From the sequence record PZ452598.1: DNA of 64,000 bases. One strand, 5' to 3'. Position 1 is the first letter of the stretch; each line of letters opens with the position of its first letter. Positions 236 to 24,323 of the stretch are shown piece after piece. The notes below the pieces were generated by a model that ran no database searches, was not told the origin of the DNA, and was given only the letters and a program-made list of their open reading frames with translations. The DNA is from a phage. The translations under genes and the position numbers were made by a program.

Positions 236-285
236 ATATTCCTTAGTTTATAGCCCGAGTTATTAGGCTCTTGATATATTATACT
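236..285 (-). promoter_or_regulatory. Shine-Dalgarno AAGGAA plus short hairpin directly 5' of gene 43 start; candidate gp43 autogenous translational operator
   Basis: minus-strand RNA ...AAGAGCCUAAUAACUCGGGCUAUAAACUAAGGAAUAUCUAUG; stem AGCC/GGCU with 9-10 nt loop abutting the SD. Confidence 0.4.
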
Positions 286-291
286 CCAAAT

Positions 292-309
292 AAGGGGCCG
301 AAGCCCCTT
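292..309 (-). other. RNA stem-loop GGGGC-UUCG-GCCCC (C(UUCG)G tetraloop) in regA-43 intergenic region
   Basis: perfect inverted repeat on plus strand aaggggccgaagcccctt; on the transcribed minus strand loop is UUCG. Confidence 0.5.
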
Positions 310-3642: not shown

Positions 3643-5325
3643 TTAAACCATTACAGTAAATCGACCAACTTTCTTCATTTGAAGATGCTGACCATATTCT
3701 TGCGGGTCATGGTCTTTATGCGAAATTATAAAAACGTTAGTGTTTTTCATTGAATTTATAATATTAGCTACACCTTTAATACCTTCGGCATCAAATGACC
3801 CATCAAACACTTCATCAAGAATTAATGTACTAATACTAACACCAGATACGATAGAAGCAATATCACGCCAAGTAAATAAAAGAGCAATATCGATTCGTGC
3901 CTTTTCACCTTCACTAAATGAAGCATAACTAAAATCTTCACGACCACGGGATTTAATTGTCTCATTAAATTCTTCATCTAATGTAAACACATAATCCGCT
4001 TCCATTATTTTAAGATAATGGTTAATCTGCTTATTAAATAATGGAATGTACTTTTTAATAATAGCACCTTTAATACCAGAATCTTTGAGCATATCAGTCA
4101 AAATTCCTCGGTGGTATTTTTCCATTACTAAATTAGTTTTTGTCTTAACAATTTTATCAAGTTCTTCTTGAAGCAGTGCTATTTCATCAGCATGGTCAAT
4201 AAACTCAGAAGATGCTTTTTCTATAGCCGCTTTAACTTTTTTAGCTTTATCTACTGCTGCGATCAGAGATTGCTTTTTATTGCGAATATCATTTGCCAAC
4301 GACTGCTGGGTTTTAATATTATCTCGGTATTCATCAACAAGAACTTTTAAATTATCACGATGTGTTGAAAGCTGTTCAAACGAATGTGTGCATTCAGAAA
4401 CTTTATCTTTAATTTTAGAAACAACTTTATCACCGGAACTCAATTGTGACAAACAGGTTGGACATAATCCACCTTCGTGATACATATTAATGACTTTATT
4501 ATACGAGTCAATTTTTGATTTAATTAAAAATGCTTCTTGACCGATTTTATTAAATGCATCAGTCGGGTCTTCGTCCAAAACAATATTAACTAATCTTTCG
4601 TTAGCTTCTTCTATTTCCGATTTTAGCGTTCTAGCTTCTTTTGCCAAATCATCATACATATTTTGTAGACGAGTAAGGTTGTCACCCGTTAATTTTTTCT
4701 GGCGTTCAACATTATCATTATATATTTTAATTTGTTGGATAATACTATCTTTTTTAACATCAAGCACTTGGTTCTGCGAATTTAATTCACGTATTAGTGC
4801 TTTATTAAGCTTATCCATTTCAGCTAATGTTCCTACCTCAAGCAGGTCTTCCACAAGCTTTCTTCGCGCAGGGGTCGACAAACCCATGAAAGGGGTATAC
4901 CCTGCTGTACCAAGGACAACAATCTGCTTGAAACTGGCATATGACATTCCGATAAGCTGTTCAAATTCTGCTTGGAAATCTTTACTGCTGGCAGATTCAT
5001 TAAGACGTGTACCGTTAACGGTGATTTCGAAAACGTTTGGTTTTTGTCCTCTTTTGATATAGTACTTTTTCTCATCATATTCCATCCACAGTTCAACTAA
5101 AAGTTCTTTCTTATTTGTGCTGTTTATTAATTGACCTTTCTTTACATCGCGAAATGGCTTACCAAAAAGCCCAAATGTGATGGCTTCTAGCATAGTAGAC
5201 TTACCACCGCCATTTCGTCCAGTAATAAGAGTTTTTTGAACCTTATCTAATTGAATGTCAATCCCATTTTGACCAACTGACATTATATTTTTATATTTTA
5301 CTCTATTAAGTTTAAAATTCTTCAC
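3643..5325 (-). CDS. 46: recombination endonuclease subunit gp46 (560 aa; SbcC/Rad50-like ATPase)
   Basis: N-terminal Walker A GRNGGGKST, long central coiled coil with CPTC zinc hook-like motif, C-terminal LILDEVFD Walker B/signature region. Confidence 0.9.
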   Translation of the reverse strand: MKNFKLNRVKYKNIMSVGQNGIDIQLDKVQKTLITGRNGGGKSTMLEAITFGLFGKPFRDVKKGQLINSTNKKELLVELWMEYDEKKYYIKRGQKPNVFEITVNGTRLNESASSKDFQAEFEQLIGMSYASFKQIVVLGTAGYTPFMGLSTPARRKLVEDLLEVGTLAEMDKLNKALIRELNSQNQVLDVKKDSIIQQIKIYNDNVERQKKLTGDNLTRLQNMYDDLAKEARTLKSEIEEANERLVNIVLDEDPTDAFNKIGQEAFLIKSKIDSYNKVINMYHEGGLCPTCLSQLSSGDKVVSKIKDKVSECTHSFEQLSTHRDNLKVLVDEYRDNIKTQQSLANDIRNKKQSLIAAVDKAKKVKAAIEKASSEFIDHADEIALLQEELDKIVKTKTNLVMEKYHRGILTDMLKDSGIKGAIIKKYIPLFNKQINHYLKIMEADYVFTLDEEFNETIKSRGREDFSYASFSEGEKARIDIALLFTWRDIASIVSGVSISTLILDEVFDGSFDAEGIKGVANIINSMKNTNVFIISHKDHDPQEYGQHLQMKKVGRFTVMV

Positions 5326-18733: not shown

Positions 18734-18976
18734 TTATTCCTTAATTCCTAGTACTTGTTTAAAAGTCTCGTCGTAATCAAGACTTTGGCCCGTTTGTTCT
18801 TTATGCTTGTATATAATATCACTTACTTCTGATAGCATATTTTTATATGAACGAGTTAAAGCAGATTTAAGCACGCTGTATCTATCAGGAAATTTACCGT
18901 GTTCATTATAATAAGCTATTGCTAATTCACGGACTGCCTTTTCAGCAGTCTCCATATATTCTTTACGCTTTGTCAT
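18734..18976 (-). CDS. hypothetical protein (80 aa from [13 protein letters not shown])
   Basis: ORF; upstream extension in ORF track overlaps next gene. Confidence 0.4.
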
Positions 18977-19277
18977 TTTCTTCTCGGTCAAATCGGTGTT
19001 TACAATGGCGACATTTATAACGAAGATTATTAGTCTGCCAATGGACCAATTGCACCTGTTCAGTTCCACATTCAGGGCAATTAGGAACGTTTTTAGAAGC
19101 CCTTTCGCGACGTTCAACCATGACCATTACAGAATCCCAATTAACAGGAGGGCTATAATCATCACAACCATAAATCTTTCCACGCATTTCCAGATCGTCT
19201 TCTTCACCAGCCATAATAATTTTAATTAGACTAGAATTACTTGAAGCTGCAATGTCTTCTAATAGACGCTTTTTCAT
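18963..19277 (-). CDS. hypothetical zinc-ribbon protein (104 aa)
   Basis: CPECG...CRHCKHRF four-cysteine ribbon. Confidence 0.5.
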
Positions 19278-20200
19278 TTCAATACCTCAATAGCATTACG
19301 TAAACCATTTGCTTTGGCGGTTAAATCCTTAAGAACTTTAGTATGCTCTTCAATCTGTTTTTCAACTTCAATCAAACGGGTACTGAGATATTCGCGTTCT
19401 TCTTTCATAGTATCATTCCCATGATTGGGCTTTGGCGTAGGTTTAAATTTATTAGGGTCCTTTAACTTAATAACAACTTTAGTTTCAAACAGTGAAAGAC
19501 CATAATTCGTATTATCATCAAAGGATTCAACTACGTCCATTTTAGACAATAACGTACGAAGATTATAAGTCAAAGAACGAATCGTTTTATTATGTTTATT
19601 AGCTTCACATGGTTTCATATATGGAAGATTTTTATATATTTCATGCGGAGCACAAACAATAATTAACAATTCAAATGGTCCATTCTGTGATGATGGAATG
19701 AATTTAGCCGTAACCCAATCTTTTACATTTACATTAATAGTACGATCATCGCCATGACAAAACAGTCTACGAGAATGCTTAAAAAGCATATTCACATTAT
19801 TATTAAATTCGTGTGAAAACTCACTGGCAAATTTTTCTTTACTATCTTTAGAAAACCATTCTTCTAAATAAGTTCTTTTCACGTCGTTAATAATATTAAA
19901 TGTAACAACATTATCATTTGATACATTAGTCTCAATGTAGCTTGGATACATAAATTTTTTAACATTATTAACAGCTATCACAGAAGATAGTAATCGGGAA
20001 CGTTTGAACCACTCGAGCAAAGAACCAAGAGAATGTGAATACGCATTTTGTGTATCTTTACAAATATGGTTTTCCCATCCAATATAGTCTAAAAAATCAC
20101 GAAGAATATTATTGATTACTTCTCTATGTCCTTTCTGATAATCACGATGTTTAGTAATAAGACTGTCAAAATAATCAATATAATGTTTACGAGTTTTCAT
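19274..20200 (-). CDS. paralog-family protein A (308 aa), C-terminal coiled coil
   Basis: shares motif pattern (L..LL.KMDVV) and coiled-coil tail with three neighbouring ORFs. Confidence 0.55.
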   Translation of the reverse strand: MKTRKHYIDYFDSLITKHRDYQKGHREVINNILRDFLDYIGWENHICKDTQNAYSHSLGSLLEWFKRSRLLSSVIAVNNVKKFMYPSYIETNVSNDNVVTFNIINDVKRTYLEEWFSKDSKEKFASEFSHEFNNNVNMLFKHSRRLFCHGDDRTINVNVKDWVTAKFIPSSQNGPFELLIIVCAPHEIYKNLPYMKPCEANKHNKTIRSLTYNLRTLLSKMDVVESFDDNTNYGLSLFETKVVIKLKDPNKFKPTPKPNHGNDTMKEEREYLSTRLIEVEKQIEEHTKVLKDLTAKANGLRNAIEVLK

Positions 20201-20254
20201 GTTCTTCTCACTTGGTTAATGATTTATACTCCGAGCCATCCTTGGCTTTAAATT

Positions 20255-21256
20255 TTACTTAATTAACTGCAAAGCTTGTTCTAGACGATCAAGACGATTA
20301 ACGGATTCTTCCCAAATCTTTTTAGCCTGCTCATATTCTTTCTGCGCTTTATTAGAAATTTCTAGAACTTCTTTATAAGCTTTTTCTAGTGCAATAACTT
20401 CTGGACGAATTTCTATCGGTTCAGGTGAATCATCAAGACATTCCATTAGTTCCTCAAGGGTAGTTTCTTCTTTAGGAGTATTCACAATTTCATCACATTT
20501 TTGTTGGTAAATTTCTTTACTAGTAGGTGAATAAGCACATTTCACTTCACGAAGGCTAATTACGAGTTTATATCCTTCCCAACCGCATATATTCTTAAAA
20601 GGATATGTATGAATATTTTCTACTGTTTCCATACAAAGTAATGCGGTCTCTAATTGACGAGTTATAGTGCTAGCAATTGAGAAAAATTTATTAATATTCT
20701 TTTGGTTAGTTTCTGGTGTAAAAAATCCATAATTCACAAAAATAGATACTTTATTTTTATCAAGTTCATATTCTTTTATGATAATCATATCAGAAGCCAA
20801 AGGATGAATTTGACGATAATCGCCATAACATAATTTAGAAGCTGATTTTAGAATTTGCTTCTTGAAAAGTCTGAAATTACTAATCCAACGACGAGTAAAA
20901 ATATTCTCAGGGTCTTCTTTATTATTGAGATGATAAGAATTAACATCACCGAACCAATTATATCCTACTACATCTTTAGTTCGTTTAATTTCTTTCCCAA
21001 AATTACCAAGAATATCCCGATTAACCAAATATGAAAGAAGACGAGACTCTTTAAAGGTTTTCTTGATAACATCTTTATCTACACGGCTAGAAATTTTACG
21101 AATTTCATGAATAAATTTAGTAGAAGAAACAATACTTGCATCAACACTATTGAGCCACTGATTGATAATAGAAAGAACGCTATTTTGGCCAAACATCGGT
21201 ATAGCTTTATCATCAATAACGCTATTGAATGATTTGATATATTCGTTACGAGTCAT
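20255..21256 (-). CDS. paralog-family protein B (333 aa from MTRNEYIKSF; strong GAGGAGA SD)
   Basis: FRLFKKQILKSASKL aligns with FRRQLKQILSTASRL of paralog C; coiled-coil tail. Confidence 0.55.
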   Translation of the reverse strand: MTRNEYIKSFNSVIDDKAIPMFGQNSVLSIINQWLNSVDASIVSSTKFIHEIRKISSRVDKDVIKKTFKESRLLSYLVNRDILGNFGKEIKRTKDVVGYNWFGDVNSYHLNNKEDPENIFTRRWISNFRLFKKQILKSASKLCYGDYRQIHPLASDMIIIKEYELDKNKVSIFVNYGFFTPETNQKNINKFFSIASTITRQLETALLCMETVENIHTYPFKNICGWEGYKLVISLREVKCAYSPTSKEIYQQKCDEIVNTPKEETTLEELMECLDDSPEPIEIRPEVIALEKAYKEVLEISNKAQKEYEQAKKIWEESVNRLDRLEQALQLIK

Positions 21257-21283
21257 ATTAATCTCCTCAGTAGAAAGTAAGAA

Positions 21284-21316
21284 CATTATACCACATCCTT
21301 GTGGCAAAGTAAACTA
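21284..21316 (-). promoter_or_regulatory. early promoter GTTTAC-N18-TATAAT between paralogs C and B
   Basis: plus 21309-21314 gtaaac, 21285-21290 attata; spacer contains CCACAAGGATGTGG. Confidence 0.45.
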
Positions 21317-22336
21317 GTTCAGTGCATTTAGTGCATTGTTCAGTTTAGAACGTTGCTTTGTCAGATTTTGAACCCTTGACTGAGCTTGTTCTAACGCCTT
21401 TTCAGCTTCTAGCACTTCATTGGTCGCTTTAACTAATTCAGCATCTACTGCCTTAAGAGACTTCTCAATCGCATCCGCGTGCCATTTTTCAACAGGTTTA
21501 AGACTTGGATTTTCAACAGGAAGAAAATTCACTTTATTGAATTTCCATGCATCTTTATTACCTGAGCTATACATCCAAAATTTAGGATCGTTTGATAAGT
21601 AATTAGATAAATTTAAGTTATCTTGCACTTCTTGCTTTTTCTCTTGTGTGACTTCGTCCTTTCTCAAAAATTCATATTTAAATGAAACGATCATATCAAG
21701 TTCATATGATGTTGTATCTAACTTAAATCGTTCAAAACGAGGTAAAATCTTAGATTGAACAGCAGCAACAACATCCATATACTTAAATGCTTCTGTCAAC
21801 TGCGATTTAAGGCATTCGCAAATTGAAAGAGAATTTTTTGTATTAGGTTTAAAGCTAATTCGTGCAGTTCTATTATTTTCTTTTAACGGTCTTACTTCCA
21901 TCTGAAGAGTATAACCATCAAATTTCAGATTCTTTAAGTTAATGTCAGAGCCTTTTAATCGACTAGCAGTAGACAAAATTTGCTTTAATTGTCTACGGAA
22001 CAGAGCAATAAATCTCCATTCAATACGATAATGATTTGGATTGAAAAATCCAGATGATAAATCGACCTTACTTTGACCAACGCCTTGAACAAATAGAGGA
22101 TTTTTATAATCAATAGTTTTACAGAAATCGGTGAGCTGTTCACGAGCAGTCATTTGAGTAATATACCCTGCTTTACTAAAATTACGCACCCATTCACTGC
22201 TATTCGTATACTTAAAGTGATGAATAACACGATTAACTTTATCAGGGTCTAAATTATTTTCACACAAAAATGTCATAACATCACGAGTATAGCTGGCATT
22301 ACGAACCATATCTTCAATTTGAGAACGAGTTTTCAT
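21314..22336 (-). CDS. paralog-family protein C (340 aa)
   Basis: see paralog B; MDVV motif shared with A. Confidence 0.55.
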   Translation of the reverse strand: MKTRSQIEDMVRNASYTRDVMTFLCENNLDPDKVNRVIHHFKYTNSSEWVRNFSKAGYITQMTAREQLTDFCKTIDYKNPLFVQGVGQSKVDLSSGFFNPNHYRIEWRFIALFRRQLKQILSTASRLKGSDINLKNLKFDGYTLQMEVRPLKENNRTARISFKPNTKNSLSICECLKSQLTEAFKYMDVVAAVQSKILPRFERFKLDTTSYELDMIVSFKYEFLRKDEVTQEKKQEVQDNLNLSNYLSNDPKFWMYSSGNKDAWKFNKVNFLPVENPSLKPVEKWHADAIEKSLKAVDAELVKATNEVLEAEKALEQAQSRVQNLTKQRSKLNNALNALN

Positions 22337-22344
22337 GGTGTTCC

Positions 22345-23259
22345 TTAAGATTTAAGTAAATCAACAATTTTAATTAACTTTTCACGCTCAGATTTAGCTT
22401 TACTACTCAATCCAGATAGTCTGAAAATTTCATCATCATATTGTTGAATAGAAATATTCAGCTCTTCAATTTGCTTATTAAAATAATCAATTTGTTCAGA
22501 ATGTTTTTCGTTACTACGAACTGGTACAGGTTTTGTAGGCAATTTAGTTGAACTGGATTCATTCGGGCGATAAATTAAAATGCAATTTGAACCAATCGGG
22601 CATTTAGCACCAGATGAATATTCTAACGTTCCAGCTTCTTTTAAAACTTCAAAAGCTAAACAGAGATGATGCCCCATATTAACATAATCAGTAGAGCGAG
22701 CTCTGATGTAATAATCATCTCCACGAGTGCTAAATTTAAAGCATTTAAGGTCTTCTGTATTATTAGTTTTAAAAATCATTTGTTTATCTAGACCTTTAGC
22801 CAATCGAGCACCTAATGCTAATAATCGTCGTTGATTTTCCCACAAATCTGCGATCATTTGGTCAAATGATAATTTCGGCATTAGCCGACCATAAAGGTCA
22901 TATCCTTTATTATAATTGCGAAGGATTTCACTCGCATTAATACGAGACAACGCTCCAATTTTATTAAGGGCTTTCATAATACGATTAGATAAACTCATTC
23001 CAGACCCGTTTGTTCGCTGTAAATGTTTTTCTAATCCAAATCCAATATCAACTTTAAATTTATCTAAAATTTCAGCATGAACATCTCTGTCAATAACATT
23101 CAAATCCAAAGTTGGGTTAAATCTATGAAAAAATTTATCTGGCTCTCCACGACGTAAAACAGTCCATTCATTCATCATTTTTTTATTAACTAAAGATTTA
23201 ATTACTGCGTTGACATTATTAATTACTACTGACATATTTTCCTCACTCAATTTTACCAA
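22345..23259 (-). CDS. paralog-family protein D (304 aa; start may be internal Met)
   Basis: same architecture: globular N-terminal region plus C-terminal coiled coil. Confidence 0.5.
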   Translation of the reverse strand: MVKLSEENMSVVINNVNAVIKSLVNKKMMNEWTVLRRGEPDKFFHRFNPTLDLNVIDRDVHAEILDKFKVDIGFGLEKHLQRTNGSGMSLSNRIMKALNKIGALSRINASEILRNYNKGYDLYGRLMPKLSFDQMIADLWENQRRLLALGARLAKGLDKQMIFKTNNTEDLKCFKFSTRGDDYYIRARSTDYVNMGHHLCLAFEVLKEAGTLEYSSGAKCPIGSNCILIYRPNESSSTKLPTKPVPVRSNEKHSEQIDYFNKQIEELNISIQQYDDEIFRLSGLSSKAKSEREKLIKIVDLLKS

Positions 23260-23644
23260 TTACGCGGAATAAGATTGAACAGACTATATAAGTACCACAT
23301 ATAGATTGAACTAATGCCATTCCAAAGAACCAAACAATATTATCAAACCATGTCTGTTTTACGTCGAAAGGACGTAAACTTACAGTAATATTATCACCTT
23401 TTTCTATTGAAGAATACATCTCTGGGGAAATATATTCACTAAATCTATAACCGTCTTTGAGTTCATATACAGCAATAAACGATAAACTAGACCCCTTTCC
23501 TTGAGTTCCTGTAAGGGTATTAACTACAGTAACATCATAATCTTTATAATGCATATAATCATTAATTGCGTAATAACCATATGCAATTACTATACATAAA
23601 CAACATATCAATAAATTCAATCTTTTAATTATCAACTGTTTCAT
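23243..23644 (-). CDS. membrane-anchored protein (133 aa)
   Basis: N-terminal hydrophobic helix LICCLCIVIAYGYYAI and second hydrophobic segment near C-terminus. Confidence 0.5.
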   Translation of the reverse strand: MKQLIIKRLNLLICCLCIVIAYGYYAINDYMHYKDYDVTVVNTLTGTQGKGSSLSFIAVYELKDGYRFSEYISPEMYSSIEKGDNITVSLRPFDVKQTWFDNIVWFFGMALVQSICGTYIVCSILFRVIGKIE

Positions 23645-23654
23645 AATAATCTCA

Positions 23655-23698
23655 ATTAAAAGGGCTTAGAACCATTATACCATCCTTGGTATAAAGCG
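23655..23698 (-). promoter_or_regulatory. candidate middle/early promoter (GCTTTA MotA-box-like, CCAAGGATGG, TATAAT)
   Basis: minus strand cGCTTTAtaCCAAGGATGGTATAATgg. Confidence 0.4.
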
Positions 23699-23699
23699 G

Positions 23700-24227
23700 T
23701 TATGCGAGTACCGTATTTAACCGTTCTTCAAACTTCCGAAGAGTGTTCTGGCGTTCAGCTCTTTGCTTTTTGTAAGTTTCAATACGCTCTGAAATGAGAG
23801 TGTATCGTTCATTTACTGATTCTTTCATAAAATCAGGAATTTCACGAGAAGCTTTAATCTCGTCAAATTTATCAATAACAGCTTGCTCTTCAGCAATTAA
23901 GTTATCATACATCAAAATATCTTTCTTGATGAACTCAATATCTTCTTGAGTTACACGAGATAATTTAGATGCTTTATCCTTTTTGTACTGTTCGTTAGTA
24001 TCACGAGACCAGTGTAATGTACGATTTTTATTCGTATTCTTGTAAATTTCTACAATACCAATCTCATCGATAATAACGATCCAATTCCAACGGGATTTGT
24101 AAATTTGTCCTCCATTAACAGTGATTTCACCTCCGATTGAGATGTCATTAAAGAACTTGCTTTGTGCTTCTGATTTAAATTTACCATCGTTGTAATTTAC
24201 CAGGTTGAAAATATCTTTAGCGTTCAT
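23700..24227 (-). CDS. hypothetical protein (175 aa from MNAKDIFNLV)
   Basis: ORF track N-terminal extension covers the promoter/leader; start set at first Met downstream of promoter. Confidence 0.5.
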   Translation of the reverse strand: MNAKDIFNLVNYNDGKFKSEAQSKFFNDISIGGEITVNGGQIYKSRWNWIVIIDEIGIVEIYKNTNKNRTLHWSRDTNEQYKKDKASKLSRVTQEDIEFIKKDILMYDNLIAEEQAVIDKFDEIKASREIPDFMKESVNERYTLISERIETYKKQRAERQNTLRKFEERLNTVLA

Positions 24228-24253
24228 TTTGTGTTCCTCCGTAGTTGATAGTT

Positions 24254-24287
24254 GTATAGTACCACAGCTCAAACGGAAAGTAAACCG
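24254..24287 (-). promoter_or_regulatory. early promoter GTTTAC-N18-TACTAT with conserved leader CAACTATCAACTAC
   Basis: plus 24280-24285 gtaaac, 24256-24261 atagta. Confidence 0.5.
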
Positions 24288-24318
24288 GTAAAATGAAAAA
24301 AAGTCTCCCGAAGGAGAC
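24288..24318 (-). terminator. intrinsic terminator: GUCUCC-UUCG-GGAGAC hairpin followed by U7
   Basis: plus gtctcccgaaggagac with aaaaaaa on its 5' side (U-run on minus strand). Confidence 0.6.
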
Positions 24319-24323
24319 TAATG

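Follow-up and report, generated by a model that had tools for sequence, protein, structure and literature searches.

The question raised by the locus treated here is what four genes of similar size and layout, lying one behind the other in a phage genome, have to do with each other and with the host of the phage. They are found in a stretch of 64,000 nucleotides (sequence record PZ452598.1; this whole stretch is referred to as the window), where they form four consecutive open reading frames (ORFs) on the minus strand which are 100% identical to nrdC.3, nrdC.4, nrdC.5, and nrdC.6 of phage T4 (Table 1). T4 is the best-studied phage, and about half of its genes are without known function. The surrounding DNA (positions 18900-24300) is 100% identical to that of the T4 isolates T4T, RB55, and RB59 and 99.9% identical to the reference AF158101. 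Downstream, the array is followed by nrdC.2, nrdC.1, and nrdC; on its upstream side lie nrdC.7, a membrane protein gene that gave no match to the family profiles described below, and then nrdC.8. A sequence-only reading of the window had seen in the four ORFs a tandem family of paralogs, and both the ORFs and, as laid out below, their relationship were borne out; its description of them as of unknown function and as the largest uncharacterised block of the window is outdated, because an anti-defence function has been published for nrdC.5 (PMC9391042).

The reading favoured here, to which a probability of roughly 0.55 is assigned, is that the four genes encode non-enzymatic blockers of host immune sensors, each paralog with a target of its own; the anti-defence role is published for nrdC.5, and homology and genomic context suggest it for nrdC.3, nrdC.4, and nrdC.6. 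The genes as such and the function of nrdC.5 were already known; new are the union of four separately classified families in one superfamily, the modules of which it is composed, the ancestors that exist as single copies, and a hypothesis on what three T4 ORFans may do. As defined here, the superfamily comprises the precomputed Pfam families PF26897, PF23882, and PF26899, and phrog_1435, phrog_2351, and phrog_2257. NrdC.5, the third ORF of the array (100% identity), is a member of DUF7235 (PF23882), being the only one of the four to pass the gathering score of 30 bits; nrdC.3 stays below this cut-off with 11.7 bits, and nrdC.4 and nrdC.6 gave no match to PF23882 in the Pfam search. The three remaining proteins differ from NrdC.5 in being placed in separate Pfam and PHROG families, while they share with it the order of motifs, the linker, and the tail.

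Compared directly with each other by BLASTP, phmmer, and Smith-Waterman alignment, the four proteins of the window yield a single significant pair, nrdC.3/nrdC.4, and pairwise statistics therefore cannot settle whether the genes are paralogous. Family profiles were built from orthologs of other T4-like phages, and their globular parts, with the tails removed, were aligned by hhalign (percentages are those given by the program, E is the expectation value). The profiles of nrdC.3 and nrdC.4 match at 97% (E 2e-11) and those of nrdC.4 and nrdC.5 at 82%; the merged nrdC.3+nrdC.4 profile matches nrdC.5 at 93% (E 3e-7; 93-95% in the hhalign comparisons made with and without tails), and reversed and column-shuffled controls did not exceed 0.9%. 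In an unsupervised MAFFT alignment of 16 representatives of the superfamily, three motifs, the end of the linker, and the end of the tail fall into common columns for all four T4 proteins: motif 1 reads FK.SRLLS......L..F, motif 2 IL..AS[KR]L..GD.R, motif 3, a helix, L..AL..M..V, the linker end P..P.E[KH]-H, and the terminal motif [QE]R..L..A[IL]..LK. Two local similarities that had earlier been noticed by eye coincide with motifs 2 and 3 of this alignment. By these comparisons the paralogy of nrdC.3 and nrdC.4 is certain, and they argue strongly for nrdC.5 as a paralog of both. The nrdC.8 product, which has a helical C-terminus too, was considered as a further member and rejected; a search of the 64-kb window for additional paralogs found none.

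The membership of nrdC.6, at once the most conserved and the most divergent of the four T4 paralogs, needs a separate argument. Its profile is not joined to the tail-less family profiles at the level used above (9.5%, E 0.003), and neither direct pairwise nor family-to-family comparison with each of the other paralogs is significant. The merged full-length profile of nrdC.3 and nrdC.4 does align collinearly with nrdC.6 over 231 columns (89%), and it is the profiles of more distant relatives that bridge the gap. A profile made of proteins that occur as single copies (those of phages EcS1, CHI14, and JD18, and P0217 of Klebsiella phage 17-11) matches nrdC.6 at 75% (E 2.5e-5), nrdC.3+nrdC.4 at 94%, and nrdC.5 at 68%, with a maximum of 1.8% in shuffled controls; the single-copy protein of Enterobacter phage IME523 matches the nrdC.6 family at 92% (E 6e-7), and a profile of only two sequences, this protein and the Klebsiella protein P0219, finds all four T4 families at 80-97%. 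With the IME523 match as the upper end, bridging comparisons of nrdC.6 range from 82 to 92% (E 1e-5 to 6e-7). Because the bridging outgroup profiles thus reach 75-92% and the shuffled controls at most 1.8%, nrdC.6 qualifies as a member, and by profile comparison it can be regarded with good confidence as a paralog of nrdC.3, nrdC.4, and nrdC.5. A Foldseek search of the BFVD database with the nrdC.6 model points the same way, returning a 335-aa (amino acid) protein of IME523 (E 4e-6) which, judged by length and locus, is very probably the single-copy family member of that phage.

One might object that nrdC.6 is no true homolog and shares with the others merely a generic layout of a helical domain plus a C-terminal helix, which would leave T4 with three family members. 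The want of significance in all direct comparisons speaks for this, as does the fact that the Foldseek search with nrdC.6 returned none of the nrdC.3, nrdC.4, and nrdC.5 proteins of E. coli phages. Against it, the bridges agree from several directions, and the merged nrdC.3+nrdC.4 profile is collinear with nrdC.6 over the 231 aligned columns; the order of secondary-structure elements is the same in the models of nrdC.6 and nrdC.5, and both tails carry EK.H...I at their start and ER..L at their end, so that the objection appears quite improbable. The family relationship had been claimed for all four genes, and it holds by direct profile alignment for nrdC.3, nrdC.4, and nrdC.5 and, with probability, by way of the bridging profiles for nrdC.6.

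When 1.84 billion representative proteins were searched exhaustively by HMMER with the profile of nrdC.3, nrdC.4, and nrdC.5, only 21 were matched, and the full-length outliers among these could be assigned to Kagamiyamavirus EcS1, Winklervirus CHI14, Jiaodavirus JD18, and Klebsiella Slopekvirus phages. The family does not extend beyond the T4-like phages (Tevenvirinae) that infect Enterobacterales. In the Tevenvirinae it occupies the same site, downstream of nrdC.8/nrdC.10-type genes and upstream of the thioredoxin gene nrdC, as seen in T4, A2, RB32, REP4, EcNP1, PYps15T, DalCa, JN02, ESCO47, SP18, and Bp7, and also in EcS1, JD18, CHI14, and IME523. The number of genes at this site varies: EcS1, CHI14, JD18, and IME523 have one copy, Mosigvirus (ESCO47, JN02) two or three, SP18 and Bp7 three (nrdC.6, a nrdC.5-like gene, which is split in SP18, and nrdC.4), and Tequatrovirus four; the family expanded from one copy specifically in the phages of E. 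coli. By tblastn in the phage collection, nrdC.6 is the most widely retained copy (742 records), followed by nrdC.3 (654), nrdC.5 (582), and nrdC.4 (554). Just upstream of the single family member, EcS1, JD18, and CHI14 encode a highly conserved protein of about 260 aa (positions 4122-4898 of locus L007, 4142-4930 of L008, and 4127-4900 of L009) that has no counterpart in the T4 array; considered as possibly nrdC.6-like, these genes were rejected as unrelated to the family.

Individual members show traces of rearrangement. Gp220 of Shigella phage Sf25 (P0093, 378 aa), an ortholog of nrdC.6, contains an internal tandem duplication of residues 177-259 which extends from within the beta-hairpin/helix unit across the linker into the beginning of the tail. 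P0056 (299 aa; encoded on three contigs, the longest of 167,058 bp) is a natural fusion of nrdC.5 residues 146-272 with a nrdC.3-type C-terminal half, the joint lying between ...KFNKVN and MLFKH..., which implies that nrdC.4 was deleted by recombination between paralogs. Two metagenomic proteins, P0092 (173 aa, from a contig of 803 bp) and P0216 (157 aa), share with nrdC.5 just the tail, their N-terminal sequences being unrelated; they were not used as evidence for a shuffling of modules, because the contigs are very short and either module exchange or chimeric assembly may have produced them. In the T2 record LC348380 (L012, 2150-3089 and 4237-5070), the annotation splits both nrdC.4 and nrdC.6 into two ORFs; another T2 record, PV958097, likewise yields a two-piece alignment for nrdC.4, whereas nrdC.6 is intact in T2 record PV648363. 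The split nrdC.4 of T2 may be a real pseudogene or may result from sequencing errors. In GenBank records of T4-like phages, homologs of nrdC.3 to nrdC.8 are widely annotated as "thioredoxin"; they gave no match to thioredoxin families, and the annotation appears to have been carried over from the locus name nrdC.x.

All four proteins have the same layout, a basic alpha+beta globular domain of about 225-250 aa that carries the three collinear motifs, a proline-containing linker, predicted to be disordered in nrdC.5 and nrdC.6, and a C-terminal helical tail. AlphaFold2 (AF2) models were made for nrdC.6 from an alignment of 33 sequences and for nrdC.5 from a mixed alignment of paralogs. The former (mean predicted local distance difference test score, pLDDT, 79.7; predicted template modelling score, pTM, 0.65) consists of seven or eight N-terminal helices, followed by a beta-hairpin, a helix, and a second beta-hairpin, a disordered linker (residues 227-243), and a helical hairpin (246-272/278-295). 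The nrdC.5 model is poor (pLDDT 46.7) and unusable for a fold search; it shows the elements in the same order as nrdC.6, with a long disordered linker (221-283) and one confident terminal helix of 56 residues (284-339) in a block with a pLDDT of 80-90.

In the nrdC.3, nrdC.4, and nrdC.6 families, no segment is better conserved than the tail. That of nrdC.4 is the most conserved part of its family by entropy (0.47 versus 0.80 bits), about 22 columns of the nrdC.6 tail are invariant across six aligned sequences of 30-100% identity, and the nrdC.5 tail profile matches the tails of the outgroup at 96.6% (E 6e-10). The sequence-only reading had taken these tails for coiled coils. Helical they are in both modelled proteins; in nrdC.6, however, the model suggests that the tail folds back on itself as a hairpin instead of forming one long coil, and by a crude heptad score the nrdC.5 and nrdC.6 tails exceed all of 100 shuffles and nrdC.3 nearly does so, whereas nrdC.4 does not. 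A coiled coil is thus plausible but unproven. The globular domains are basic (net charge +5 to +11, isoelectric point (pI) about 8.9-9.5); for the whole proteins the pI is 7.5-9.4 and the net charge +1 to +12.

Nothing in these proteins points to an enzyme. Profile searches of all PDB sequences gave nothing below E 0.02, a search of NCBIfam gave nothing, and over Pfam, NCBIfam, and the PDB sequences DUF7235 was the only informative family. With the nrdC.6 model, Foldseek found nothing in the PDB at E <= 0.001; its hits in BFVD were limited to proteins of about 300-335 aa, all uncharacterised, that are encoded by T4-like phages of Acinetobacter, Enterobacter, and Pectobacterium. No catalytic domain could be recognised by Pfam, NCBIfam, PDB, or Foldseek searches, in agreement with the earlier impression that no catalytic motif was present, and by every computational check applied the family is non-enzymatic.

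What such proteins may do is indicated by nrdC.5. Srikant, Guegler, and Laub (eLife 2022, PMC9391042) described an evolved T4 clone with compensatory deletions that was unable to plate on the E. coli strain ECOR17; it did plate once dsr1 had been deleted from ECOR17, and MG1655 became protected against it when given cloned dsr1. T4 nrdC.5 expressed from a plasmid restored plating of the clone on Dsr1-carrying cells, and nrdC.5, which is expressed early in infection, neutralises Dsr1, a SIR2 NADase that acts as an abortive-infection sensor; neither a mechanism nor the paralogy of nrdC.5 is given in that paper (PMC9391042). According to a 2026 preprint (PMC12803255), E. coli Dsr1 and Avs7 have homologous tetratricopeptide repeat (TPR) sensors, that of Dsr1 is triggered by a phage major capsid protein, and sensors of the Dsr1/Avs7 type are fused to many effectors across bacteria, including nuclease and kinase domains. 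Yuan et al. (NAR 2022, PMC9825161) found genome-reduced T4 mutants without the fragment nrdC.1-6 to be viable, and the whole array is therefore accessory. No paper was found in the literature on the paralogy of nrdC.3-nrdC.6 or on the function of nrdC.3, nrdC.4, or nrdC.6.

These data can be combined into the following scenario. An ancestral single gene would have given rise to the four diverged tandem duplicates nrdC.3-nrdC.6, the products of which, made early in infection, would act as stoichiometric inhibitors, each binding a host abortive-infection sensor while the late phage protein acting as its trigger, such as the capsid protein, has yet to accumulate. The variable globular domain would confer target specificity, and the conserved C-terminal tail may serve oligomerisation or a common docking function. 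It is rather unlikely, though it would account for the expansion from one to four copies specifically in E. coli phages, that the paralogs form a family of sensor blockers co-evolving with a bacterial family of pattern-recognition proteins, each globular domain neutralising a different sensor clade.

The best mechanistic analogy for how NrdC.5 could work is DSAD1, which likewise comes from a phage and disarms an abortive-infection sensor, again a SIR2 NADase, with a late structural protein as trigger; there, the sensor is occupied and the trigger cannot activate it, which would be the suggested mode of action of NrdC.5 as well. DSAD1 targets DSR2, not Dsr1, and reportedly structures of the two in complex were published in 2024. 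The four proteins showed no similarity to PDB chains, including DSAD1, in sequence and structure searches, and the family is neither homologous to DSAD1 nor an NAD-rescue enzyme of the NARP1/NARP2 kind. The internal proteins IPI, IPII, and IPIII of T4 offer another parallel: they, too, form in the T-even phages a set of diversified accessory proteins, each combining a short conserved module with a variable body, and of them at least two counter host defences: IPI counters GmrSD and IPIII an unknown system of ECOR17 (PMC9391042). An N-terminal targeting sequence, however, directs them into the capsid, and they have no sequence relationship to nrdC.3-nrdC.6, where the conserved module is the C-terminal helical tail and the proteins are early cytoplasmic products. 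With the T4 "anti-TA (toxin-antitoxin) island" dmd-tifA-adfA and with anti-CRISPR loci, the array has in common that it is a cluster of small accessory early genes that govern host range and can be done without in laboratory strains; in those islands unrelated genes stand side by side, whereas nrdC.3-nrdC.6 appear to be a true paralogous expansion of one ancestral gene. Acidic DNA mimics of the Ocr/ArdA type are strongly acidic, which nrdC.3-nrdC.6 are not.

Pairwise, gene-wide ratios of nonsynonymous to synonymous substitution rates (dN/dS) of T4 versus six other Tequatrovirus phages are 0.17-0.33 for nrdC.3, 0.18-0.36 for nrdC.4, 0.11-0.24 for nrdC.5, and 0.06-0.09 for nrdC.6; the neighbours endonuclease VII, nrdC, and nrdC.8 have 0-0.12, nrdC.6 thus being under a constraint on a par with nrdC and endonuclease VII. 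The proteins of nrdC.3, nrdC.4, and nrdC.5 evolve several-fold faster than their neighbours, and in Tequatrovirus nrdC.3 exists in two allele classes, 90-100% versus about 60% identical to the T4 protein, with a synonymous divergence (dS) of about 1 between them. The diversifying selection postulated in the sequence-only reading is not shown by these values, gene-wide dN/dS lying at 0.06-0.36; what does exist is the faster evolution of three copies, the nrdC.3 alleles, and the variation in copy number. As to the anti-defence arsenal postulated along with it, the part concerning nrdC.5 and Dsr1 stands on published experiments (PMC9391042), and the part concerning the other three genes is suggested by homology and context.

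Several points weigh against four sensor blockers. The experimental link to defence concerns one of the four genes, nrdC.5, and its direct binding to Dsr1 is suggested by analogy with DSAD1 and DSR2; the roles envisaged for the tail, oligomerisation or docking, are likewise inferred. A shared three-dimensional fold was not demonstrated, as only nrdC.5 and nrdC.6 were modelled and the nrdC.5 model is too poor, the order of elements being what agrees. Basic globular domains would suit the binding of nucleic acids too. None of the four genes showed a gene-wide dN/dS above 1 in the six pairwise comparisons with T4, and purifying selection on nrdC.6 is as strong as on core genes, this copy also being the most widely retained. 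The conservation of nrdC.6 fits a housekeeping or scaffolding role better than a role in an arms race and is the main observation that agrees poorly with a blocker; its target may be invariant, or its role may be more central.

The most probable of the alternatives restricts anti-defence to nrdC.5 and assigns the others to host takeover, to conserved phage physiology (nrdC.6), or to partly redundant copies drifting to loss. The core-gene-like dN/dS of nrdC.6 and the invariant columns of its tail across genera fit this alternative, as do the ORFs split in T2 (nrdC.4 and nrdC.6 in LC348380, nrdC.4 in another record), the split nrdC.5-like gene of SP18, and the dispensability of the nrdC.1-6 block on laboratory E. 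coli. Yet the genes in question are paralogs of a proven anti-defence protein and intact in hundreds of genomes (554-742 records each), for which related functions are the simpler assumption, and host-range genes are just those that one would expect to be dispensable in laboratory strains; on balance the restriction to nrdC.5 is possible but not likely.

The four proteins could also be subunits of one hetero-oligomeric complex, held together by the conserved C-terminal helices, and not independent inhibitors. They share the terminal motif, the tail is the best-conserved part of three of the four families, and the genes are adjacent on the same strand. The copy number of one to four among related phages, however, means that there is no fixed set of stoichiometric partners; plasmid-borne nrdC.5 alone rescued the deletion clone, the text of the paper being silent on which paralogs the clone retained (PMC9391042), and the tail profiles of nrdC.6 and nrdC.4 match neither each other nor most other tail profiles significantly, all of which makes such a complex improbable. 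Equally doubtful are nucleic-acid-binding regulators with a basic domain and a dimerising coiled coil that act on Dsr1 indirectly, for example via the timing or amount of the capsid-protein trigger: the charge of the globular domains and a weak, sub-threshold resemblance of the C-terminal helix to leucine zippers would fit, but nrdC.5 works when expressed alone from a plasmid.

By their place in one family with a proven anti-Dsr1 protein, nrdC.3, nrdC.4, and nrdC.6 become specific candidates for host-range or immune-evasion factors which are cheap to test, and the contrast between variable domain and conserved tail defines where to mutate them. If the paralogs turned out to be directed at different immune sensors, the locus would illustrate clearly how a virus can counter defence by expanding a gene family, and it would be a useful marker for choosing or engineering therapeutic T4-like phages.

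Table 1. Features of the nrdC.3-nrdC.6 array (positions in the window; motif 2 refers to the MAFFT alignment)
Feature	Position	Strand	Size or residues	Remarks
nrdC.3 (paralog A)	19274..20200	(-)	308 aa, 36.3 kDa, pI 9.0	phrog_1435, E 8e-101; homologs in precomputed Pfam PF26897
nrdC.3 motif 2	19739..19789	(-)		MLFKHSRRLFCHGDDRT; MAFFT column block
nrdC.3 C-terminal helical tail	19277..19405	(-)	aa 266-308	Tail alignment; best heptad window 278-305
nrdC.4 (paralog B)	20255..21256	(-)	333 aa from ATG, 39.0 kDa	phrog_1435, E 6e-168
nrdC.4 motif 2	20810..20854	(-)		ILKSASKLCYGDYRQ; MAFFT column block
nrdC.4 C-terminal helical tail	20258..20401	(-)	aa 286-333	Ends RLEQALQLIK; tail alignment
Promoter-like site between nrdC.5 and nrdC.4	21285..21313	(-)		TTTACT, 17 nt, TATAAT, TG before; 10/12 consensus matches
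nrdC.5 (paralog C)	21314..22336	(-)	340 aa, 39.7 kDa, pI 9.35	Published anti-Dsr1 factor; Pfam DUF7235 (PF23882), E 5e-126, 420.6 bits
nrdC.5 motif 2	21935..21979	(-)		ILSTASRLKGSDINL; MAFFT column block
nrdC.5 C-terminal long helix	21317..21487	(-)	aa 284-340	KWHADAIE to KLNNALNALN; AF2 helix 284-339
nrdC.6 (probable paralog D)	22345..23235	(-)	296 aa from ATG, 34.0 kDa, pI 9.3	phrog_2257, E 4e-152
nrdC.6 motif 2	22780..22824	(-)		LLALGARLAKGLDKQ; end of helix 135-147 and next loop in AF2 model
nrdC.6 C-terminal helical hairpin	22348..22506	(-)	aa 244-296	KHSEQIDYF to KLIKIVDLLKS; AF2 helices 246-272, 278-295
nrdC.7	23243..23644	(-)		Predicted membrane protein immediately upstream of nrdC.6; phrog_2547; not a family member

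The gene boundaries in Table 1 differ in part from those first read from the ORFs, for which 308, 333-350, 340, and 304 aa had been given; the first and third of these lengths are retained. Translation of nrdC.4 starts at the ATG at 21256, giving 333 aa, because this codon is preceded by a GAGGAG Shine-Dalgarno sequence and the resulting N-terminus, MTR, conforms to the M(K)TR that is invariant across nrdC.3-, nrdC.4-, and nrdC.5-type proteins. For nrdC.6 the start is the ATG at 23235, with GAGGAA before it; the protein has 296 and not 304 aa, because all orthologs begin with MS and the PHROG match begins at residue 9 of the 304-aa ORF. The reference AF158101 lacks one T at window position 22457, which shifts the nrdC.6 reading frame after ...NKQIEEL, so that the product annotated there has 275 aa and is devoid of the conserved C-terminal tail; NC_000866 gives the same match coordinates and identity as AF158101 at nrdC.6. 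As the 296-aa form is encoded by the window, by T4T, and by all orthologs, the missing T in AF158101 is probably a sequencing error. What marks the promoter-like site between nrdC.5 and nrdC.4 is a match to the consensus and no more, sites of this kind being no commoner across the region than in shuffled sequence.

Some features of the neighbourhood may be added. The start of nrdC.2 (18963-19277, 104 aa) overlaps the stop of nrdC.3 by 4 bases, and its product has a C-terminal, zinc-ribbon-like CxxC...CxxC with many weak matches to zinc-ribbon families of Pfam. On the other side of the array, the window is without 4,821 bp that are present in T4T (HM137666, 53914-58734) and AF158101, the junction lying at 24251-24267; nrdC.9, nrdC.10, nrdC.11, mobD, and mobD.1-mobD.5 are gone with it, and nrdC.8 is directly followed by rI.-1. 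The junction occurs in no record of the phage collection. A 17-bp sequence, GTTGTATAGTACCACAG, occurs in two copies with the deletion exactly between them; it overlaps the -10-like portion of two promoter-like sequences. Close by, on the minus strand at 24302-24319, a strong terminator-like hairpin, AGTCTCCTTCGGGAGACT, followed by a run of T, is located just upstream of the promoter-like sequence GTTTAC...TACTAT that precedes nrdC.8.

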